Assembly: GCF_058153355.1 (NCBI RefSeq)
Contig: NZ_CM177019.1
Strand: one strand, 5' to 3'
Length of the DNA stretch: 64,000 bases
Part shown: positions 22,600-56,740 of the stretch, piece after piece
How the letters are laid out: each line of letters begins with the position of its first letter
Position numbering within the stretch: the stretch's first letter is position 1
The notes under the pieces: generated by a model
The model's database searches: none
Told to the model about the DNA's origin: nothing
Seen by the model: only the letters and a program-made list of their open reading frames with translations
Position numbers and translations under genes: made by a program

Positions 22600-22770
22600 G
22601 CCGGAAAAGCAGGCACCTGCCGTCTGAACGGTATCGATCCGGAAGCGTATCTGCGCCATATTCTGAGCATACTGCCGGAATGGCCCTCCAACCGTGTTGA
22701 CGAACTCCTGCCATGGAACGTAGTTCTCACCAATAAATAAGCGTCAATACGGTGCTCCGTTGACGCTGAT
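22600..22770 (+). mobile_element. IS66-family transposase 3' remnant and terminal repeat tip
   Basis: Encodes ...GIDPEAYLRHILSILPEWPSNRVDELLPWNVVLTNK*, matching the C-terminus of the intact IS66-family TnpC at 41197-42768; end sequence resembles the IS66 terminal repeat. Confidence 0.7.
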
Positions 22771-24280
22771 ATGACTTTCCGTGTCAAACCGGAATCTCTA
22801 ATTTTGACGATTTTCTTTTTAGGTTTAATTCCCTGAGGGCGACGTAGCAGTAAATCCGACGGTGAATCACGCTGATATTCGCGGGTTGGATACCGCATTA
22901 CAGAGGTCCGTCATATGAGCCTGCCACTTTCTTACGTCGCGAATCAGCTTTGTTCCGCCGTCGCCAAGCGCTAACGTGGGTTACTCTTGTACCGGGCTAC
23001 GTCGCCTTCAGGGAACTGGTTATTCTCATTTTTTATTTGTGACATTGTGGTTGTTGTGCGACAGACATTGCTATTCGGCCCATATCCCAGATAAAACCCG
23101 CCAGCTCACGTGCAACAGCAACAATTGTAATATTGACATTCTTTCCTTTGGCCTGAAGTTTTCGATACCTCTTACAAAGCCTGAGTTGAGCATCCCATGC
23201 TCTGTCAATGACGGGGCGGGGTAAATTTTCCTGCCTTTTTTGTATTGCCGGACTGATGCGTGCCGGATGACGGTAACTCCACGCTGCCTCGACCAATAGC
23301 TTTCTGGCATAGCTGTTTCCGGCTTTGGTAATGCTGCCCTGATGTCTGCTTCCACCCGATGAATATTCTGATGGCGTGATACCAAACCATGACATCAGTT
23401 GTCGTGGATGTTCAAAACGGGTCAGATCACCCAGTTCAGAAATTAATCCAACCGCAGTAATAAACTGAATCCCTCGCATGGCTTGCAGCGCCTCTACTAC
23501 CGGATACAGCCTCCATTCGGTAACGGCCTCCTTCAGGGCGGATTCCAGCCGTTCACATTGTGCCTGCCGGTCTTCTATTGTACGACGGTGTTCGTCAAAA
23601 GCTAATTGTCGCCAGGGACTTTCGAATGAGTATTTGCTGAGCCAGCGTCGGTGTGCAGGGCCCCAATCTGCTCGCCCGACATAATGGACCCCATGAACCA
23701 GAAGAAACGATTTCAGACGTTGCCTTGCATGCCGTAAATCATCGCGGGCAGATGCCCATGCCCGGGCCAAATCCCGGAATGCCTCATCTTCAATGCCGGG
23801 TACGTAGACAGCAGAAAGATCTCCTGCACGCAGTGAACGCACAAGTCTGATGGCATCACGGCGATCGGTTTTAACCCGCTCCCCCGGTTTTTTCGGGATA
23901 AGTGAGGGGGCGCAGACCATGCAGTCAAAACCGGATTTCACCAGCCGACGATAAAGTCCATAACCACAGGGCCCCGCTTCATAAACGATACTGACCTGCG
24001 ATGACTTTGACCTGAGACGTTTACAAAGATTCTGAATATCAGTAGGTGATGTGCCAATTTTACCCATCAGTTCAACAGGTTCTGAATTGATAGCATAAGC
24101 GACAGTAATCGATTCTTTGTGAACATCTAACCCGACGTACAATGTGTTATTGTTGTTCATGCTGGCCTCCGTGGTGGAAATACCGGGGTGTAGCAACAGC
24201 TCACCCATGCGGCTCTGACAACGATGTTAACCCGCGTTAAATATCCCACGTTGGCCAGCATCTGTCTCACGGAAAGTCAT
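22771..24280 (-). mobile_element. IS110-family insertion sequence, copy 1 (about 1,510 bp, 13-bp imperfect terminal inverted repeats ATGACTTTCCGTG)
   Basis: Identical to copy 2 at 54561-56070 in inverted orientation; ends atgactttccgtg (22771) and cacggaaagtcat (24268-24280). Confidence 0.85.
23033..24160 (-). CDS. IS110-family DEDD transposase/recombinase
   Basis: ORF 23033-24208; start set at MNNNNTLYVGLDVHK; N-terminal RuvC-like DEDD region (GLDVHK, YEAGPCGY, DRRDA) and C-terminal IS110 domain (ITKAGNSYARKLL). Confidence 0.88.
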   Translation of the reverse strand: MNNNNTLYVGLDVHKESITVAYAINSEPVELMGKIGTSPTDIQNLCKRLRSKSSQVSIVYEAGPCGYGLYRRLVKSGFDCMVCAPSLIPKKPGERVKTDRRDAIRLVRSLRAGDLSAVYVPGIEDEAFRDLARAWASARDDLRHARQRLKSFLLVHGVHYVGRADWGPAHRRWLSKYSFESPWRQLAFDEHRRTIEDRQAQCERLESALKEAVTEWRLYPVVEALQAMRGIQFITAVGLISELGDLTRFEHPRQLMSWFGITPSEYSSGGSRHQGSITKAGNSYARKLLVEAAWSYRHPARISPAIQKRQENLPRPVIDRAWDAQLRLCKRYRKLQAKGKNVNITIVAVARELAGFIWDMGRIAMSVAQQPQCHK

Positions 24281-24398
24281 ACTGCCTTACCTTTTCTCAG
24301 GCTATTTTTGCTTTTTTTTGCTTTTCCCCGCCACTTTATGGTGATTATCACATCAATATACATCGATAGATATTAACGTAACTGAAGTGAGGTGAAGC

Positions 24399-25613
24399 AT
24401 GAAATTTGAACGCCATCATGAAATATTGAAACGACTCAGTAAATTCGGTTCTGTAAAAGTATCCGATCTGTCCAATAGCCTCAATGTAACGAAAGAAACT
24501 ATTCGTTCAGATCTTAATGAACTTGCCAGGCTTGGCTATCTGACTCGATGTCATGGCGGTGCTTTTATCGTCCTAGACTCGCTTGATACTATTGCGAAAA
24601 ATGAAATCGCTTATGCGCTTGAAAATTATGATACAGCCCAGGGAATAAAAAAAGGCCACTCAACTATGAAAAGTCAAGTATGCGTTATTGGTTCGTTTAA
24701 TGTTGATATCATCAGTTATTTGCCGAGGCTTCCCACTATCGGAGAATCGCTTCTGGCAAGTAATTTTATATTTTCACCGGGGGGAAAAGGCTGTAACCAG
24801 GCGCTGGCAGCAAGCTTTGCCGATACTGATGTTTATTTCATAACAAAAGTAGGTACAGATCACTTTAGTGATTATGCGATCAACTTTATGAATTCGTCTA
24901 AGATTTATAAAAGTATAATTTATCAAACGAAAGAAACGCAAACCGGAACTGCCACGATCCTTGTTAATGAAGGTACTGGCGATAATGTTATTGCGATCTA
25001 TCCCGGTGCCAACATGACAATGTCGTCCGATGAAATAACTATTCAGAAAGAAGCGATTATTAATTCTGATGTCATACTTCTGCAGCTCGAAACAAATTAT
25101 ACCGCTCTGCAACAAGCGATCACATTGGCGCAAAAAAACAGTATCCCGGTCACTATTAACCCGGCACCCTATAATGATATCGTCAACGAACTTATTCAGG
25201 ATGTTGATTATATCACCCCCAATGAAACAGAAGCTGGTTTACTGTCCGGCATAGACGTACACGATCTTGAATCAGCTAAACGAGCTGCAGAAGCTATCCA
25301 CAATAAAGGGGTAAAAAACACGGTTATCACGCTCGGTAGCAAGGGCTCGCTCGCATTTGATGGCAAAAAATTCATTCATTCGCCAGCGTTTCCAGCGGTC
25401 GTTAAAAATACGGCAGGAGCCGGGGATGCGTTTAACGGCTCTCTGGCATCAGGACTTGCGAAAGGAAAATCACTGGAATCAGCACTGTGTTATGCCAGCG
25501 CCTTTGCATCCCTAGCGGTGGAGACAAGCAATGCTTCCGACATGCCTGAACATGAATCTGTGATACATCGAATTCAGAGTATACATTATCAGCAAACTAT
25601 TTTTACGCATTAA
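24399..25613 (+). CDS. DeoR-type HTH regulator fused to a PfkB/ribokinase-family sugar kinase domain
   Basis: 404-aa ORF; N-terminal 60 aa HTH (VSDLSNSLNVTKETIRSDLNELA), then PfkB motifs (GGKGCNQA; NTAGAGDAFNGSLA). Confidence 0.75.
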   Translation: MKFERHHEILKRLSKFGSVKVSDLSNSLNVTKETIRSDLNELARLGYLTRCHGGAFIVLDSLDTIAKNEIAYALENYDTAQGIKKGHSTMKSQVCVIGSFNVDIISYLPRLPTIGESLLASNFIFSPGGKGCNQALAASFADTDVYFITKVGTDHFSDYAINFMNSSKIYKSIIYQTKETQTGTATILVNEGTGDNVIAIYPGANMTMSSDEITIQKEAIINSDVILLQLETNYTALQQAITLAQKNSIPVTINPAPYNDIVNELIQDVDYITPNETEAGLLSGIDVHDLESAKRAAEAIHNKGVKNTVITLGSKGSLAFDGKKFIHSPAFPAVVKNTAGAGDAFNGSLASGLAKGKSLESALCYASAFASLAVETSNASDMPEHESVIHRIQSIHYQQTIFTH

Positions 25614-25626
25614 GAAGGGACAGAGA

Positions 25627-26385
25627 ATGAATAACACCAAAAAATCACTAAAAGTGCTCTTTATTGGGGAATCCTGGCATATTCATATGATTCATTCAAA
25701 AGGATATGACAGTTTTACCTCAAGTAAATATGAAGAAGGTGCGACCTGGTTACTCCAGTGTCTGAAAAATAGTCAGGTAGATGTCACCTATATGCCAGCA
25801 CATACGGTACAAATTGCCTTCCCTGAAGATGTGGCACAGTTAGAACAATATGATGCCATCGTTATTAGTGATATTGGTAGTAATACTTTCCTGCTACAAA
25901 ATGATACTTTTTATCAGCTTCGCATAAAACCAAACGCTCTCGAACTGATTAAAGAATATGTGAATAACGGTGGTGGGTTATTGATGATTGGCGGCTATCT
26001 CTCATTCATGGGAATTGAAGCAAAAGCCAATTATAAAAATACAGTTCTGGCTGATGTGCTCCCGGTTACGATGTTAGATGGTGACGATCGTGTCGAAAAA
26101 CCAGAGGGTGTTATTGCACAGCCATCACAACCTGAACATCCAGTTATTAAAGGGTTCTCTGAATATCCTTTTTTCCTAGGTTATAACCGGGCGATCGCTA
26201 AAGAAAATGCTGAGGTGGTATTAACAATAAACAACGCTCCATTACTGGTCTTTGGTAACTATCACAACGGGAAAATAGCCTGCTTTATGAGTGACTGTTC
26301 ACCGCACTGGGGTACACAGCAGTTTATGTCCTGGCCGTTCTATACCGCGTTGTGGGTAAATATACTGACTCATATTGCAAGATAA
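25627..26385 (+). CDS. ThuA-like / class I glutamine amidotransferase-like protein
   Basis: 252-aa ORF; family assignment by recognition of the overall sequence pattern, not verified. Confidence 0.55.
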   Translation: MNNTKKSLKVLFIGESWHIHMIHSKGYDSFTSSKYEEGATWLLQCLKNSQVDVTYMPAHTVQIAFPEDVAQLEQYDAIVISDIGSNTFLLQNDTFYQLRIKPNALELIKEYVNNGGGLLMIGGYLSFMGIEAKANYKNTVLADVLPVTMLDGDDRVEKPEGVIAQPSQPEHPVIKGFSEYPFFLGYNRAIAKENAEVVLTINNAPLLVFGNYHNGKIACFMSDCSPHWGTQQFMSWPFYTALWVNILTHIAR

Positions 26386-26441
26386 TAATAATAATGGGGT
26401 AACTCCAGTTACTCCATTTACTATAATAGAAGGATTGATGT

Positions 26442-27407
26442 ATGAAAAAGAATAAGTACTCAACTCCCTTATGGATGCTTGCCACGATTCTTGCGGGTAT
26501 GCTCTCCCCTATGCAATCAGCGGTGAATGGTCAATTAGGTCACTGGTTACAGGATGGTAATGCATGCGCAGTTATCTCCTTTGCCAGTGGTTTAGTCGTG
26601 ATGTTTTTTATTATTATGGCGCGAAAAGAAACCCGGCAACAATTTGCGGCAATTCCTTCTCTGATTAAAAACCGAAAAGTTCCTCTCTGGAACTGGTTTG
26701 CCGGTCTCTGTGGAGCGATGGTGGTATTTTCTGAAGGCGCATCAGCCAGCGCACTCGGGGTCGCAACGTTTCAAACCGCACTGATCTCCGCGCTATTGCT
26801 GTCTGGTTTACTTTGCGATCGCTTTGGTATCGGTGTCGACGAGAAAAAATACTTTACCCCTTATCGCATCATCGGTGCATTATTTGCGGTTATTGCTACG
26901 ATTTTTGTTGTGTCACCTCAGTGGCATTCTACCTCTTTCATCTTACTTGCCATTCTTCCGTTCTTAGCTGGTTTGCTTGCAGGATGGCAGCCCGCTGGAA
27001 ATGCAAAAGTAGCTGAAGCTACGGGATCCATGCTGGTTTCAATCACCTAGAATTTCATCGTTGGATTTTGTGTTTTAGGCACAGCGCTAGCTATTCGTGT
27101 CGCATTAGGGCACGTCACTGTTCAATTACCAGATGTCTGGTGGATGTATCTTGGCGGCCCGCTTGGACTAATGTCTATCGGTTTAATGGCCATTTTGGTC
27201 AGAGGTCTGGGGTTACTGATGCTGGGGGGTGCTTCAACGGCGGGCCAGTTACTGGGATCAGTATTGATTGACGTATTAATTCCATCGCTGGGCAATAGCG
27301 TTTATCTGGTCACGATCATCGGAACACTGTTTGCACTGGTCGGTGCAATTGTTACCACTATTCCGGAATACAGAACCTCGAAAACAATGAAGAAAATGGA
27401 GGTATAA
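26442..27407 (+). pseudogene. DMT-superfamily (YdcZ/DUF606-like) membrane transporter interrupted by an in-frame TAG
   Basis: Two same-frame ORFs (26442-27050, 27144-27407) separated only by TAG at 27048-27050; frame stays open and hydrophobic across the stop. Confidence 0.65.
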
Positions 27408-27483
27408 TCATGAAAGATTATCTACAAACTGTGACGGGCCCCGTCGCCCGTGAAGATATGGGGCTAACACTTTGGATTTGCCC

Positions 27484-28389
27484 CTATATTTCCAGACACC
27501 TGTTATCACTTAACCCATTACTGGCCTGCTGCCGCAGATATTCCCGTGGCGAGCGATAACCCAGTGCACTATGCGGATGCCATTCGTTATAATGCTCGAA
27601 CGCCTCTGCAAGGTTCTTTGCTGCCGTTAACCCGTCTGGTTTAGGCATGATACTGATGTAGTCACGCTTTATCGTTTTCACGAAGCTCTCTGCTATGCCG
27701 TTACTCTCCGGACTCCGCACCGCCGTGTTCTTCGGTTCAAGCCCCAACATCCGGGCAAACTGCCGTGTTTCATTAGCCCGGTAGCATGAACCATTATCCG
27801 TCAGCCACTCTACTGGAGACGCCGGAAGCTCGTTGCCGAAGCGGCGTTCCACCGCTCCCAGCATTACGTCCTGTACTGTTTCACTGTCGAAGCCGCCCGT
27901 AGTGACTGCCCAGTGCAGTGCCTCACGGTCACAGCAGTCCAGCGCGAACGTGACTCGCAGTTTTTCTCCGTTATCACAGCGGAACTCGAACCCGTCAGAG
28001 CACCATCGTTGATTGCTTTCTTTCACGGCCACTTTGCCAGTATGTGCCCGTTTCGATGGCGGTACAGCGGTTTTTCGCTCAAGCAACAGCGCATTCTGGC
28101 GCATGATCCGGTAAACACGTTTGGCATTGATCGCAGGCATACCATCAAGTTCGGCCTGTCTGCGAAGCAGCGCCCATACCCGACGATAACCATACGTGGG
28201 CAGCTCTCCGATAACATGGTGTATACGGAGAAGCACATCCGTATCATCTGAGTGACGGCTGCGGCGACCATCTTTCCAGTCATCGGTTCGTCTGAGAATT
28301 ACGTGCAACTGCGCACGCGACACCCGGAGACAACGGCTGACTAAGCTTACTCCCCATCCCCGGGCAATAAGGGCGCGTGCGCTATCCAC
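27484..28389 (-). CDS. insD: IS2 transposase OrfB (InsD, DDE integrase domain)
   Basis: 301-aa ORF recognised as IS2 OrfB. Confidence 0.9.
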
Positions 28390-28712
28390 TTTTTTGCATG
28401 CCCGTATTCAACGGCTTCTTTAAGGAGTTCATTTTCCATCGTTTTTTTGCCGAGCAGGCGCTGGAGTTCTTTAATCTGCTTCATGGCAGCAGCAAGTTCA
28501 GAGGCAGGAACGACCTGCTCTCCTGCGGCCACAGCAGTAAGACTTCCCTCCTGGTATTGCTTGCGCCAGAGAAATAACTGGCTGGCTGCCACACCGTGTT
28601 GCCGGGCAACAAGGGAGACCGTCATTCCCGGTTCAAAACTCTGCTGAACAATAGCGATCTTTTCCTGTGTAGTACGCCGTCTGCGTTTCTCCGGTCCTAA
28701 GACATCAATCAT
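28347..28712 (-). CDS. insC: IS2 OrfA (InsC, HTH)
   Basis: [41 protein letters not shown]; overlaps orfB in the -1 frame. Confidence 0.9.
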
Positions 28713-29789
28713 CTGCTCTCCAATGACTAGTCTAAAAACTAGTATTAAGACTATCACTTATTTAAGTGATATTGGTTGTCTGGAGATTCAGGGGGCCAGT
28801 CTACACTTCCTCATGAACATCTGTTCAACGATCTTTCCTCTGTTGTGGATGCTCCTTGCTATCCTTTTTCACAACGGCTTGTTGATAAAAAAGTCACGGC
28901 AGAAATCCAGTGGGCATTAAAACACGATCCTTATTGCTGCGCTGATAATATGGACCGCAAACCTATTGAAGATGTGATCTTCGAAATTAATAACTTTATC
29001 TCGCTCGGTGGTCGCACCATTATTGATGCCACAGGGTCTGAGTCTATCGGACGAGATGCGCAGGCATTACGAGAAGTCGCATTAAAAACAGGTCTGAATA
29101 TTGTTGCTTCCTCCGGTCCCTACCTGGAAAAATTTGAAAACCAGAGAATTCATAAAACGGTTGATGAACTGGCGACAACGATCGATAAAGAATTGAATCA
29201 AGGGATTGGCGATACGGATATTCGTGCCGGAATGATCGGTGAAATAGGTGTTTCACCGACATTTACCGAAGCCGAGCATAACAGCTTGCGGGCTGCCTCG
29301 CTGGCACAGATTAACAATCCTCATGTGGCGATGAATATTCACATGCCGGGCTGGCTTCGTCGCGGTGATGAAGTACTCGACATTGTGTTAGGTGAAATGG
29401 GCGTCTCGCCAAATAAAGTCTCTCTCGCACACTCGGATCCGTCAGGAAAAGACGTGGCGTATCAGCGGAAAATGCTTGATAAAGGTGTCTGGCTGGAATT
29501 CGACATGATTGGCCTAGACATTACCTTCCCGAAAGAGGGAATAGCGCCAGGGGTGCAGGAGACTGCCGATGCCGTCGCTCATCTCATTGAGTTGGGATAC
29601 GCCGATCAGCTTGTTCTCAGCCACGATGTCTTCCTTAAACAAATGTGGGCTAAAAATGGCGGTAATGGCTGGGGATTTGTTCCAGATGTTTTTCTGGCCT
29701 ATCTGGCGGAGCGCGGCGTCGATAAAACGATCCTCAAAAAACTCTGTATCGATAATCCCGGACGATTATTGACCGCATAAAACCATTAT

Positions 29790-29812
29790 CCCCCGGCACA
29801 TTGCGCCGGGGG
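29790..29812. terminator. Hairpin between the Php-like gene and the ggt fragment
   Basis: CCCCCGGC acattgc GCCGGGGG. Confidence 0.5.
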
Positions 29813-29819
29813 ATGTCAA

Positions 29820-30150
29820 TTAATACCCCGCCGTTAAATCATCCACCAAGCGCGAGTCGGATGCGCCGTACAACTCACCATCCGACCCAACCATAATGCT
29901 TTGCGTGCTGCCCATCGCCTCATTCAGCGCCACTTTCTGACCTTTTGCATCCAGCAGCTTGAGCGTATCCGGACTAAACCCTTTTCAACACGCAGCTCGT
30001 CCGGCAACCACTGATAGTGGAAACGAGGCGCATTGGTCGCTTCGGCAACATTCATTCCACAATTGATGCTGTTCACCACCATTTGCAGCACGGTAGTGAT
30101 GATCCAGCTACCGGTAACAAAGTGAGTACATAAAGGCCATACTGTCACGA
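29820..30150 (-). pseudogene. ggt: Gamma-glutamyltranspeptidase 3' fragment (frameshifted, 5' end missing)
   Basis: Minus-strand peptides ...IITTVLQMVVNSINCGMNVAEATNAPRFHYQWLPDELRVEKG and, in another frame, ...DSRLVDDLTAGY* match the GGT C-terminus; fragment abuts the ISL3-like element. Confidence 0.7.
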
Positions 30151-31907
30151 ACAGTGCAAAAGTGGCTCTTCCGCAACCTGGGTGAAGATTTTCATGCCAG
30201 TGGACTCATTACCCTCCGCCTAAGTAGTTCAAGTCCGGCTCGACCATACATCTGGCGTATCAGCACCTTCAGGCGATTTACATGACCTTCGACAACACCA
30301 GTACTCCAGCGACTGCTGATTGCCTCACATATAGCCGCAGCATCAGCTTCCATCCCCGCAGCTACGCACCGAAGTTCTGCTGAGCCGCTTTCGTGGACCC
30401 GAGTGAACCAGCTGCTTAGCTGTGATTTATTTTAGGTTTTCAGAATACGGTAGAACTCGAGTACCAGTTGCTGCGCTATTTTCAACTCCGGTTCTTTTTC
30501 ACACATCAGACTAATAAATCGGAAAGCATAATTTTCTTCACCCCTGATTATTCTCCAGGGCATCAACCAGCGGCTTACCCGGGACACTGAAGGAAGTCTT
30601 GCGGCAGTAGTAACCGGTGGGATCCAGCCTTTACGCCATTTGGCAACAGCATCCCTGACGATGGTTTCACTGCCTGTAACCCCCCTGGCCACCATTTCCC
30701 GCCATATCCGGCCGGAGTTATAATTACCACATTCTCGTTGCTCTTTTAACCACTCCCTCCATGGGTCCAGAAGCCCTCGCTTTGGAGGCCTAGTTGACAT
30801 TTCAGGGAATGTTCCTGAACCCACCCAGCGACTGACTGTCACTCGCGACAGGCCTGTAATACGGGATATTTCCCTGAAACTACATCCCTTGTTATGCAGG
30901 GCCATAACCTCTGTCCAACGCTGATGCCGTTTTTTGCGGATGTGCTGTTTAAGGCGTTCCAGACGACGGAGCGATGCTACAGGCACAGATATTTCTGGCT
31001 CAGGTGATTTCTTCAGTGATAACTCTCTGACAACAAGACGTATCAGAGGCATATGTCTGTACATCATTCGTTCAGGCTCATCACCAATATTTTTTAGCAG
31101 GTGCCATCGATCGGCCACCTGTCTGGCCTGAGGTGCACCTTCACGTGCTGCTGTCGCATAGACTCCACTGCGATCACGCGAGACAACCTGTATTTCCGGA
31201 TATTTTCTGAACCAGGTCGCCAGCGTACGCTGATCACGGCCGGGAAGCAGGACGAGGGGACGGTGAGTATCAAGATTGACTATTAACATACCGCAGCAGT
31301 GGCCCCGATGCCACGCCCACTCATCAATACCGACATGAGGCGCGCCTGACTGTTTCGTCTCCGGGGTATTGATAACCCTGCGAAGAAGAGTATCAGCACT
31401 GCAACGGAGACCCGCTGCCGTTGCAGCCCGTTTTCCAGCCTCACCTCCAGCTATTAATCCCAGTTGACGTTGTAAATTTTGTAACGCCTGTGAAGACTGC
31501 TGGTGTGAACCGGCGAAGGGAGCAAGCGACTCGGCAAAAATTTTACGTGAACAAGCCGGGTTACGGCAGTACCAGTGGCGGACGGAAAATACAAGCCATA
31601 GCGTCTGCCCTGAGCAGGGTAGATGCTGTATCCGGCGCCGACGACAACTATGAACAGAGTCGCTACGCTTAAAGCATTCAGGACATTGTGCTGTTTTGCG
31701 TTTTCCGTGGAGATGGAGGGTTATACCGTCAGAGCTAATAATTTGTCGACTGCATCGCCATCCGCAAGGTAACTGTAGAAGTGTCTTAAGAGAGTGCATT
31801 GCGTTGCCCATAACTTAAAACAGCTTAGATCCTTGTTCGCCAGAAAGTTTCATCCATTTTCTTCCACCCAGGTTGCGGAAGAACCACTTTTCATCCGTCG
31901 TTGACAG
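30142..31907 (-). mobile_element. ISL3-family insertion sequence with about 43-bp imperfect terminal inverted repeats
   Basis: Ends ctgtcacgaacagtgcaaaagtgGCTCTTCCGCAACCTGGGTG (30142-) and its inverted complement ending at 31907; encloses the transposase ORF. Confidence 0.75.
30432..31811 (-). CDS. ISL3-family transposase
   Basis: 459-aa ORF with N-terminal zinc-ribbon pattern (CPECFKRSDSVHSCRRRRIQHLPCSGQ...RHWYCRNPACSRKIFAE) typical of ISL3 transposases. Confidence 0.8.
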   Translation of the reverse strand: MGNAMHSLKTLLQLPCGWRCSRQIISSDGITLHLHGKRKTAQCPECFKRSDSVHSCRRRRIQHLPCSGQTLWLVFSVRHWYCRNPACSRKIFAESLAPFAGSHQQSSQALQNLQRQLGLIAGGEAGKRAATAAGLRCSADTLLRRVINTPETKQSGAPHVGIDEWAWHRGHCCGMLIVNLDTHRPLVLLPGRDQRTLATWFRKYPEIQVVSRDRSGVYATAAREGAPQARQVADRWHLLKNIGDEPERMMYRHMPLIRLVVRELSLKKSPEPEISVPVASLRRLERLKQHIRKKRHQRWTEVMALHNKGCSFREISRITGLSRVTVSRWVGSGTFPEMSTRPPKRGLLDPWREWLKEQRECGNYNSGRIWREMVARGVTGSETIVRDAVAKWRKGWIPPVTTAARLPSVSRVSRWLMPWRIIRGEENYAFRFISLMCEKEPELKIAQQLVLEFYRILKT

Positions 31908-54490: not shown

Positions 54491-54552
54491 AAAAATCTAA
54501 GCTCAGAAAACGGATTAAAGTAAAAATCTAAGCTCAGAAAACGGATTAAAGT
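54491..54552 (+). repeat. Perfect 31-bp tandem duplication (2 copies) abutting the left end of IS110-family copy 2
   Basis: aaaaatctaagctcagaaaacggattaaagt at 54491-54521 and again at 54522-54552. Confidence 0.9.
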
Positions 54553-54560
54553 AAGGCAGT

Positions 54561-56070
54561 ATGACTTTCCGTGAGACAGATGCTGGCCAACGTGGGATAT
54601 TTAACGCGGGTTAACATCGTTGTCAGAGCCGCATGGGTGAGCTGTTGCTACACCCCGGTATTTCCACCACGGAGGCCAGCATGAACAACAATAACACATT
54701 GTACGTCGGGTTAGATGTTCACAAAGAATCGATTACTGTCGCTTATGCTATCAATTCAGAACCTGTTGAACTGATGGGTAAAATTGGCACATCACCTACT
54801 GATATTCAGAATCTTTGTAAACGTCTCAGGTCAAAGTCATCGCAGGTCAGTATCGTTTATGAAGCGGGGCCCTGTGGTTATGGACTTTATCGTCGGCTGG
54901 TGAAATCCGGTTTTGACTGCATGGTCTGCGCCCCCTCACTTATCCCGAAAAAACCGGGGGAGCGGGTTAAAACCGATCGCCGTGATGCCATCAGACTTGT
55001 GCGTTCACTGCGTGCAGGAGATCTTTCTGCTGTCTACGTACCCGGCATTGAAGATGAGGCATTCCGGGATTTGGCCCGGGCATGGGCATCTGCCCGCGAT
55101 GATTTACGGCATGCAAGGCAACGTCTGAAATCGTTTCTTCTGGTTCATGGGGTCCATTATGTCGGGCGAGCAGATTGGGGCCCTGCACACCGACGCTGGC
55201 TCAGCAAATACTCATTCGAAAGTCCCTGGCGACAATTAGCTTTTGACGAACACCGTCGTACAATAGAAGACCGGCAGGCACAATGTGAACGGCTGGAATC
55301 CGCCCTGAAGGAGGCCGTTACCGAATGGAGGCTGTATCCGGTAGTAGAGGCGCTGCAAGCCATGCGAGGGATTCAGTTTATTACTGCGGTTGGATTAATT
55401 TCTGAACTGGGTGATCTGACCCGTTTTGAACATCCACGACAACTGATGTCATGGTTTGGTATCACGCCATCAGAATATTCATCGGGTGGAAGCAGACATC
55501 AGGGCAGCATTACCAAAGCCGGAAACAGCTATGCCAGAAAGCTATTGGTCGAGGCAGCGTGGAGTTACCGTCATCCGGCACGCATCAGTCCGGCAATACA
55601 AAAAAGGCAGGAAAATTTACCCCGCCCCGTCATTGACAGAGCATGGGATGCTCAACTCAGGCTTTGTAAGAGGTATCGAAAACTTCAGGCCAAAGGAAAG
55701 AATGTCAATATTACAATTGTTGCTGTTGCACGTGAGCTGGCGGGTTTTATCTGGGATATGGGCCGAATAGCAATGTCTGTCGCACAACAACCACAATGTC
55801 ACAAATAAAAAATGAGAATAACCAGTTCCCTGAAGGCGACGTAGCCCGGTACAAGAGTAACCCACGTTAGCGCTTGGCGACGGCGGAACAAAGCTGATTC
55901 GCGACGTAAGAAAGTGGCAGGCTCATATGACGGACCTCTGTAATGCGGTATCCAACCCGCGAATATCAGCGTGATTCACCGTCGGATTTACTGCTACGTC
56001 GCCCTCAGGGAATTAAACCTAAAAAGAAAATCGTCAAAATTAGAGATTCCGGTTTGACACGGAAAGTCAT
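54561..56070 (+). mobile_element. IS110-family insertion sequence, copy 2 (inverted relative to copy 1)
   Basis: Ends atgactttccgtg (54561) and cacggaaagtcat (to 56070); internal sequence identical to copy 1 over all inspected ORFs. Confidence 0.85.
54681..55808 (+). CDS. IS110-family DEDD transposase/recombinase
   Basis: Same 375-aa protein as copy 1; GGAGG RBS at 54671. Confidence 0.88.
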   Translation: MNNNNTLYVGLDVHKESITVAYAINSEPVELMGKIGTSPTDIQNLCKRLRSKSSQVSIVYEAGPCGYGLYRRLVKSGFDCMVCAPSLIPKKPGERVKTDRRDAIRLVRSLRAGDLSAVYVPGIEDEAFRDLARAWASARDDLRHARQRLKSFLLVHGVHYVGRADWGPAHRRWLSKYSFESPWRQLAFDEHRRTIEDRQAQCERLESALKEAVTEWRLYPVVEALQAMRGIQFITAVGLISELGDLTRFEHPRQLMSWFGITPSEYSSGGSRHQGSITKAGNSYARKLLVEAAWSYRHPARISPAIQKRQENLPRPVIDRAWDAQLRLCKRYRKLQAKGKNVNITIVAVARELAGFIWDMGRIAMSVAQQPQCHK

Positions 56071-56740
56071 ATCAGCGTTAATGGAGAATCATATTGATGC
56101 TTATTTATTGGTGAGAACTACGTTCCATGGCAGGAGTTCATCAATACGGTTGGAAGGTTATTCCGGCAGTACGCTCAGGATATGGCGCAGATACGCTTCC
56201 GGATCAATGTCGTTCAGAAGGCAAGTGCCGATAAGCCCATACAACAGTGCACTGCGCTCGCCGCCGAAGAACATAAAGTTTTTATTTCCGAGACAGATGG
56301 CACAAAGGGCTTTTTCCGCGGCATTATGTCTGCCTCCGCCTGACCGTCAACACTGTAATAACAGAGTGCGCCCCACTGATTCAGTACACAGCTGAACCAT
56401 TCTCCCAGTCTGGATTTTTGGATAGCGTGGCATTTTTCTCCACCATGCATGCAGTGAGTCCAGTAACAGTTTGCTCTTCTTCTGCCTGACCACAAGATGT
56501 GCTGGACTGGTAAACGATGGGGATACCTGCTTACGCGAGAGCAATAAGTGGCTGGCCACAATTCTCGGTACAAAACTCTGCTGAATAGCAGCGATTTTCC
56601 CAGCGTGGTGCGTCGTTTGCATTTTACTGGTTCTAAGTTAACAATTATCTGTTCACTAATGACTACTCTAAAAACTTGTATCAGGACTATCACTTATTTA
56701 AGTGATATTGGTTGTCTGGAGATTCAGGGGGCCAGTCTAT
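56071..56740 (-). mobile_element. Composite IS remnant: IS66-like tnpC 3' fragment plus IS2-like terminal fragment
   Basis: 56071-56400 encodes an IS66 TnpC C-terminal tail on the minus strand, about 85-90% identical to the remnant at 22600-22770; 56650-56740 is an IS2-type terminal repeat (GGGGGCCAGTCTA). Confidence 0.65.

Follow-up and report, generated by a model that had tools for sequence, protein, structure and literature searches.

What a compact group of four genes inside an Escherichia coli genomic island was acquired to degrade, and whether it can still do so, is the question raised by positions 24399-29780 of the DNA studied here, a 64,000-nucleotide (nt) stretch of contig NZ_CM177019.1 (assembly GCF_058153355.1), referred to as the window. 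A preliminary description had presented these genes as a compact, co-directional and decayed islet for the use of a sugar derivative. Coordinates, order and strand (all plus) hold in both the list of open reading frames (ORFs) and the sequence, and the surrounding DNA is indeed a genomic island, of the CP4-44 type. The reading preferred here, with a probability of about 70%, is that window positions 24304-30113 form a horizontally acquired rikA-STM3550 cassette of ~4.5 kb for a ribose-type conjugate, and that this cassette is dead in the present genome.

The gene order is a PfkB-type kinase fused to a helix-turn-helix domain (HTH-PfkB), a PF07090 protein, a tandem-YdcZ permease of the drug/metabolite transporter (DMT) type and a hydrolase of the phosphotriesterase (PTE) family, with intergenic spacers of 13, 56 and 2 nt. 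The near-overlap that had been pointed out at 27405-27412 is the last of these, where 2 nt separate the TAA stop of the permease (27405-27407) from the ATG of the hydrolase (27410-27412). As judged from identity and colinearity, the cluster is orthologous to rikA(STM3547)-STM3548-STM3549-STM3550 of Salmonella. That cluster has already been published, with Citrobacter, Escherichia, Budvicia and Proteus as genera that conserve it (McCormick, Jabbar & Escalante-Semerena, Mol Microbiol 2026, PMC13432705). In blastn comparisons, the E. coli cassette is colinear with its Salmonella/Citrobacter counterparts, at ~76% nucleotide identity over 4.47 kb. The same four genes are annotated in many genomes by the Prokaryotic Genome Annotation Pipeline (PGAP), and some E. 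coli records already name the kinase "ribokinase RikA". The authors of the 2026 paper found no study on homologues of the three genes downstream of rikA (PMC13432705), and a literature search on STM3548, DUF1355, PF07090, STM1381 and STM3550 likewise retrieved no functional study.

The blastn limits of the homology with Salmonella/Citrobacter lie 94 bp upstream of rikA and ~333 bp past the hydrolase stop, where it ends in the 3' end of ggt (Table 1). Salmonella has a complete ggt after STM3550, and E. coli a fragment only. Because this fragment is kept where Salmonella has the complete gene, the cassette must have been captured from a locus of the yhhY-ggt type. In E. coli it normally occupies the CP4-44-type island that lies between tmaR/yeeX and cobU, at the end nearest cobU.

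Table 1. Positions of the features of the rikA-STM3550 cassette in the window.
Feature	Position	Strand	Description and basis
T-rich motif ATTTTTGCTTTTTTTTGCTTTT	24304-24325	+	Conserved; left cassette edge; 8-locus upstream alignment and blastn limits
Palindrome GTGATTATCAC	24341-24351	+	Conserved upstream region; phylogenetic footprint
rikA	24399-25613	+	Intact ORF, 404 aa; DeoR-type HTH (24411-24566) and ribokinase-like PfkB
PF07090 gene (GATase1-like protein)	25627-26385	+	Intact ORF, 252 aa; E 1e-111 (Pfam)
Tandem-YdcZ DMT permease, pseudogene	26442-27407	+	Two PF04657 repeats; 321-aa chain
Hydrolase, 5' fragment	27410-27472	+	Codons 1-21; final 5 nt CACTT (27468-27472) is the left target duplication
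IS2-type element, IS3 family	27473-28803	-	1331 bp; transposase ORFs 28347-28757 and 27484-28389
Hydrolase, 3' part	28804-29780	+	Right CACTT (28804-28808) and codon 22 to stop; sequence
GC-rich hairpin	29788-29814		12-bp stem, terminator-like; directly 3' of the hydrolase gene; terminator scan
Gamma-glutamyltransferase (ggt) 3' fragment	29820-30113	-	Right cassette end; PGAP pseudogene in E. coli relatives

Two of the four genes had been described as inactivated, one by an amber codon and the other by an insertion sequence (IS) at codon 21 with a CACTT duplication, and both lesions are confirmed. A single in-frame TAG occupies codon 203 of the permease gene (27048-27050). The two PF04657 repeats, which bear out the assignment of this protein as a DMT permease, lie on either side of it (domain 1, residues 10-154, E 5e-32; domain 2, E 4e-9). 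Intact orthologues are 321-323 aa long; the codon is TGG in Salmonella, Klebsiella and Orbus, and Trp is found in 24/24 orthologues. PGAP flags an "internal stop" in the permease of relatives. The element in the hydrolase gene encodes transposase ORFs of 136 and 301 aa on the minus strand. It matches, over its whole length and at 95.6% identity, a copy labelled IS2 in a related genome, and is accordingly IS2 or a closely related isoform. Removing it together with one CACTT restores an ORF of 344 aa, which reads ...GLTL-PHEHLF... across the junction and through the PHEH metal motif. With its permease cut at Trp203 and its hydrolase after codon 21, the pathway is predicted to be dead in this genome.

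A hybrid ORF of 334 aa (28776-29780) starts from a TTG within the end of the element, in frame with the hydrolase 3' part. PGAP annotates it in two genomes as the intact "phosphotriesterase-related protein" WP_000012229.1, which is probably an annotation artefact. If the islet of the window were still functional, the 202-aa permease half would act as a homodimer, like a stand-alone YdcZ, and the hybrid ORF would be active although it lacks 19 N-terminal residues. The truncated permease does keep the full first YdcZ domain, and the PGAP call and the HxH metal motif retained after the IS junction speak for the hybrid ORF. However, Trp203 is invariant and the fused form with 10 transmembrane segments (10-TM) is conserved in 24/24 orthologues, the element, in antisense orientation, separates the operon promoter from the hydrolase 3' fragment, and substitutions have built up at invariant positions. 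Both genomes that share the junction have lost further gene content, as expected of an unselected locus. A functional islet is thus very improbable, and the cassette is regarded as dead in what follows.

How these lesions are distributed was followed in complete E. coli genomes (n = 5426), with presence scored on the first 3.2 kb of the islet. It is carried by 2179 of them (~40%), and all four genes are annotated as intact in Nissle 1917 and in the type strain ATCC 11775. Alleles at the amber site were counted as exact 61-mers. Protein cluster representatives (P0001/P0002) are unsuited to allele-frequency estimates. Of 2038 records with the site, 1428 carry TGG (~70%) and 599 carry TAG (~29%). 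TAG as the ancestral or recoded state in E. coli was rejected on the majority of TGG records (1428/2038) and on the invariance of Trp in other genera. The exact IS2 junction occurs in 2/5426 genomes, O121 strain 201805972 and VL7S7; in both, rikA is also frameshifted and the PF07090 gene has undergone an IS1-associated deletion. Other genomes have IS2/IS1 insertions elsewhere in the islet.

Decay in the window may extend beyond the two disrupted genes, as substitutions are present at otherwise invariant sites in all four proteins. Examples are D204A in the PF07090 protein (Asp in 73/74 homologues), V263G in the permease (Val in 24/24) and V93I in the hydrolase (Val in 30/31). The allele counts, the rare IS junction, the losses in sister strains and the invariant-site substitutions together show an unselected locus decaying in steps, with an old, shared amber codon, a recent IS insertion and additional losses in sister strains. 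The cluster seems to decay in other lineages too. In Salmonella enterica GCA_900478435.1, rikA is split into two called genes of 304 and 87 aa (locus L003, 6775-7988), and intact kinase and hydrolase ORFs are apparently missing from a Providencia alcalifaciens locus (L024).

Domains were called with Pfam and NCBIfam, at curated cut-offs, and structures were matched by sequence comparison with the PDB. A DeoR-type HTH and a PfkB kinase had been described in one polypeptide, and both are found in the single ORF of RikA: PF08220 (HTH_DeoR) covers residues 5-56 (56.4 bits) and PF00294 (PfkB) residues 92-382 (216.7 bits against a cut-off of 25.8). Pfam detects no DeoR_C sensor domain at the C-terminus, where the kinase stands instead. 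RbsK is matched in the PDB at E 4e-52, and RikA stays below the RbsK equivalog cut-offs (TIGR02152, 281.1 vs. 299.65 bits; NF008353, 251 vs. 341). Matches to pseudouridine kinase, fructoselysine 6-kinase (E 4e-16) and YeiI-type models are weak, with scores far under the NCBIfam cut-offs. The amino-acid identity to Salmonella RikA is 0.81-0.83 for the HTH and kinase parts. Both the catalytic Asp343 (the Asp of GAGDAF) and an internal Met90 (codon 24666-24668) are present in the window; Met90 is kept in Escherichia, Salmonella, Citrobacter, Budvicia and Klebsiella but not in Proteus/Providencia.

The fusion of regulator and kinase had been called unusual, which does not hold. In a survey of one genome per species with an alignment of PF07090 homologues, 80 loci were examined among 415 relatives; 24/80 carry the fusion, and so does orf408, the paralogue in Salmonella pathogenicity island 2 (SPI-2). 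The HTH is under purifying selection: dN/dS for codons 2-60 is 0.05-0.25, at saturated dS, much as in the kinase part. This low ratio implies that the HTH is translated and constrained, despite the Met90 product obtained in the laboratory. A dual role of RikA as regulator and kinase would be the simplest reading.

Upstream of rikA, the alignment of eight orthologous loci provided the phylogenetic footprint of Table 1, in which the palindrome GTGATTATCAC is a candidate operator for the RikA HTH. A scan for sigma-70 consensus sites in this region was uninformative, as they were no more frequent than in shuffled sequence. Loss of the promoter was considered as a third lesion, given that the breakpoint of an IS110-bounded inversion lies 113 bp upstream of rikA. 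It was rejected: the homology starts only 94 bp upstream, and all conserved motifs are kept.

Salmonella RikA is a demonstrated, if modest, kinase of ribose (Km 2 mM) in which Asp343 is essential, and chromosomal rikA alone supports growth of Salmonella on ribose (PMC13432705). The cluster could, on this basis, be a third ribose-salvage module, which would import free ribose or common ribonucleosides, with RikA as a true ribokinase and the other two proteins as accessories. Besides the growth phenotype, the Km for ribose is near that of RbsK (PMC13432705), the TIGR02152 ribokinase model scores 281 bits, and Rbs-type ATP-binding cassette (ABC) transporters stand in for the DMT permease in the Firmicutes versions of the locus. 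Nevertheless, the TIGR02152 score remains under the cut-off of 299.65, and kcat/Km is ~50-fold below RbsK, which puts RikA on a par with DeoK, a kinase that accepts ribose as a side substrate (PMC13432705). Furthermore, free ribose would need neither the hydrolase nor a PF07090 protein that is invariably linked to the kinase. Simple ribose salvage is therefore improbable, and a ribose-type conjugate is preferred to ribose itself.

The product of the second gene had been described as ThuA-like, which is acceptable as a description of the fold only. Its nearest fold neighbors are ThuA-like proteins (PDB 1T0B, 4JQS, 4E5V), with 14-20% identity; its family is PF07090, and no match to PF06283 (ThuA) was obtained at E <= 0.001. 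The crystal structure of STM3548 (2GK3) is matched at E 7e-145. The family is unusually conserved, with ~60% identity between E. coli and Paenibacillus and many invariant polar residues, among them an invariant SDCxPHW motif on a GATase1-like fold. NCBIfam holds no family for this protein, nor for either half of the DMT permease. An imperfect hairpin, AATGGGGTAACTCCAGTTACTCCATT, is located at 26395-26420, in the 56-nt gap between the PF07090 gene and the permease gene, and has a perfect 11-bp stem in Nissle 1917. This hairpin may be the reason why two transcription units are predicted in Salmonella.

For the fourth gene, the earlier label of a Php-like amidohydrolase is correct at the level of the PTE family (PF02126, E 5e-47). 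E. coli Php is, however, a far more distant relative of this protein than Pmi1525, Rsp3690 and animal PTER are. An assignment as Php was rejected, as the NF007373 equivalog model gives 108.4 bits against a cut-off of 486. The reconstructed hydrolase is 85-87% identical to its Salmonella/Citrobacter orthologues, and 73.5% identical over the full length to Pmi1525 of Proteus mirabilis (3RHG, E 3e-174). The 3RHG sequence and the product of the fourth gene in the Proteus mirabilis cluster are 100% identical. The activity of Pmi1525 on carboxylate and methylphosphonate esters reportedly comes from substrate-library screening. PMC5341072 cites Pmi1525 as a metal-stimulated PTE-family esterase. The animal relative PTER is an amidohydrolase that acts on N-acetyltaurine (PMC11374699), and by analogy the hydrolase of the window may have had an amidase role.

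Beyond E. coli, the orthologous genes co-occur widely, and Pfam leaves the proteins in the families proposed for them. Intact clusters were found in other genera as in other E. coli. Partners were counted by tblastn within 8 kb of the PF07090 gene in the 80 loci; greedy longest-ORF calls on the same loci had given spurious antisense ORFs (clusters c27, c37), and the final counts do not come from these. A PfkB kinase is found in 69/80 loci, an ArgE/DapE-type M20 deacylase in 44, an RbsA-like ABC ATPase in 43 and a Pmi1525-type PTE in 32, the latter 36-41% identical even in Bacillaceae. YdcZ DMT permeases (25/80), ureidoglycolate-lyase-like proteins (23/80) and BtpA/SgcQ proteins (15/80) follow, together with NupC, cytidine deaminase, a carbamoylase-family amidase, a proline-iminopeptidase-family hydrolase and an amino-acid permease.

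Several types of operon can be distinguished from these partners. Enterobacterales have HTH-PfkB, PF07090, DMT and PTE; Succinivibrionaceae have the same genes, with the kinase unfused and an AraC-type regulator. In the SPI-2 type, orf408 and orf245 are accompanied by a proline-iminopeptidase-family hydrolase and an amino-acid permease. The plasmid/Serratia type has NupC and cytidine deaminase. Bacillaceae and Paenibacillus combine LacI, Rbs-like ABC transporters and amidohydrolases. Across these types the kinase and PF07090 stay constant, and the importer and a hydrolase of C-N or ester bonds vary. A mobile version of the core, with HTH-PfkB, a NupC-type transporter, PF07090 and a tetrameric-type cytidine deaminase, was observed on a Salmonella contig that carries IncFII repA, next to a Tn3-family transposase (L004, 5508-9200). 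Serratia proteamaculans (L061) has NupC, PF07090 and Cdd on its chromosome.

Because the kinase and PF07090 are constant, the importer and the hydrolase vary, and the specificity of RikA is ribokinase-like, uptake and breakdown of a ribose-type conjugate is proposed. Gene context and the specificity of RikA support catabolism of such a conjugate, without naming the compound. The most likely mode of action, judging from gene content and comparative context, would be as follows. The 10-TM permease would import a compound of the ribose type (pentofuranosyl) with a group attached through an ester or amide link. The PTE-type hydrolase, with a binuclear metal center of the Pmi1525 type, and the PF07090 protein would strip or split this linked group. 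RikA would phosphorylate the 5-OH of the pentose, which would enter pentose-phosphate metabolism, and the HTH of full-length RikA would couple the expression of the operon to the same ligand.

The variable partners also bear on a deglycation pathway comparable to frlABCD, in which ribose-derived Amadori compounds or N-ribosyl amino acids would be processed by a permease, a PfkB kinase that acts on the glycated compound and PF07090 as the "deglycase", with peptidase-type partners trimming glycated peptides. The match of RikA to the fructoselysine 6-kinase model (E 4e-16), the pairing of the SPI-2 core with an amino-acid permease and a proline-iminopeptidase-family hydrolase, and the M20 deacylases in 44/80 loci are in agreement with it. 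On the contrary, the versions with NupC and cytidine deaminase point to nucleoside-like substrates, the cluster contains no gene of the SIS/FrlB type or the FrlC type, and the activity that PF07090 would have to supply has not been demonstrated. Deglycation is as improbable as free-ribose salvage, and both rank well behind the proposed breakdown of a ribose-type conjugate.

Still less is to be said for a detoxification or export module, in which a xenobiotic would be dealt with by an exporter of the YdcZ type together with a promiscuous ester/phosphonate hydrolase, and the fusion would mainly be a sensor. Pfam labels YdcZ as a putative inner-membrane exporter, and Pmi1525 is reported as a carboxylate/methylphosphonate esterase. 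But in Firmicutes the core occurs with binding-protein-dependent ABC importers and LacI-type sugar regulators, and the presence of a second PfkB kinase and of BtpA/SgcQ-type proteins points to sugar catabolism. A module of this kind is very doubtful.

Several points weigh against the breakdown of a ribose-type conjugate as well. To our knowledge, no substrate has been demonstrated for the cluster in any organism, nor any activity for PF07090. In the alignment, read by eye, the elbow region of PF07090 is GGYLSF, which lacks the usual nucleophilic Cys of GATases; the SDCxPHW motif is located elsewhere in the sequence. The name that Pfam gives to the YdcZ family, putative exporters, does not suggest an importer. 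For Salmonella RikA, kcat/Km shows the ~50-fold deficit noted above, the authors suspect that ribose is an off-target substrate, and only a 35-kDa kinase initiated at Met90, without the HTH, was recovered (PMC13432705). Moreover, BioCyc predicts two operons for the Salmonella cluster (PMC13432705).

A more specific version of the proposal, tentative and rather unlikely as it stands, is that the invariant PfkB and PF07090 pair is the core of an undescribed pathway, spanning phyla, for N-linked ribosyl compounds. Candidate compounds would be nucleosides with a modification or damage, for example ring-opened or ureido ribosides. PF07090 may then represent a novel type of N-ribosyl or amide hydrolase. 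The variable partner, whether of the PTE type, an M20 deacylase, a carbamoylase, a proline iminopeptidase or a cytidine deaminase, may fit the pathway to different aglycones. RikA may be a "trigger enzyme" with two isoforms, the full-length protein being a ligand-sensing repressor and the Met90 form a plain kinase.

The island around the cassette has been rearranged. In the window, the entire island has the opposite orientation to that in close relatives. An inverted repeat of 1682 nt, 99% identical between its copies at 22612-24293 and 54548-56229, carries an IS110-like ISSso6 transposase gene, and the two copies bracket 30,254 nt, corresponding to the entire CP4-44-type island including the islet. 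VL7S7 and O121 201805972 show the usual order, with the repeat in one copy only. The arrangement has the appearance of a recent IS110-associated inversion accompanied by the gain of a copy. Directly beyond the ggt fragment lies an ISL3-family transposase ORF (30432-31811, minus strand), which is annotated in every inspected relative as a pseudogene interrupted by an internal stop. Insertion-sequence remnants thus flank the islet: next to rikA this is IS66' in other strains, and next to ggt it is ISL3.

Taken by itself, the finding in the window is minor: a pseudogenized allele of a published cluster that is present in ~40% of E. coli, mostly with an intact Trp203 codon. Added here are the link to Pmi1525, which is not made in PMC13432705, the origin indicated by the ggt fragment, the allele frequencies of the lesions, the selection on the HTH and the PfkB and PF07090 core shared across phyla. 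Three of the four cluster proteins already have a structure or an assay, and the comparative picture narrows the search for the substrate to conjugates of the ribose type that contain an amide or an ester linkage. The TAG lineage and the IS2/IS1 alleles, compared with Nissle 1917 and ATCC 11775, provide natural strain pairs for phenotyping.

Other systems that combine a transporter, a PfkB kinase and an enzyme splitting a conjugate are psuK-psuG-psuT, for pseudouridine, and frlABCD, for fructoselysine. The analogy with these operons, as with the HTH-PfkB protein YeiI, is in outline only, as the window cluster has no homologue of PsuG, FrlB or FrlC. A paralogous core is found in Salmonella in orf408-orf245-orf32-orf48 of SPI-2, by ttrBCA (L007, 6763-11055, near pykF). 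It contains an HTH-PfkB protein of 408 aa and a PF07090 protein of 245 aa (orf245, STM1381, PDB 3SOZ), ~65% identical to that of the window, and an alpha/beta hydrolase of the proline-iminopeptidase family and an amino-acid permease replace PTE and DMT. Both orf245 and orf408 are listed as needed at pH 3 in one transposon-sequencing (Tn-seq) study.

Among characterized hydrolases, E. coli Php (YhfV, 1BF6) shares PF02126 and the HxH motif with the window protein at E 1.5e-24. Animal PTER is likewise of the same family and has the HxH motif, although the relation is distant (9EFA, "phosphotriesterase-related protein", E 8e-37). Rsp3690 (3K2G) is the next PDB match after Pmi1525, at E 8e-68. The gene of Pmi1525 (3RHG/4QSF; Xiang et al., Biochemistry 2015) is the fourth of the Proteus cluster, like the hydrolase gene of the window, which is split by the IS. 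The closest system remains the Salmonella rikA cluster, whose four genes correspond to those of the window in identity, order and orientation. It occupies the yhhY-ggt chromosomal site, whereas the E. coli cassette resides in a CP4-44-type island with only a fragment of ggt, and it differs from the copy in the window by the two genes that are disrupted in the latter.

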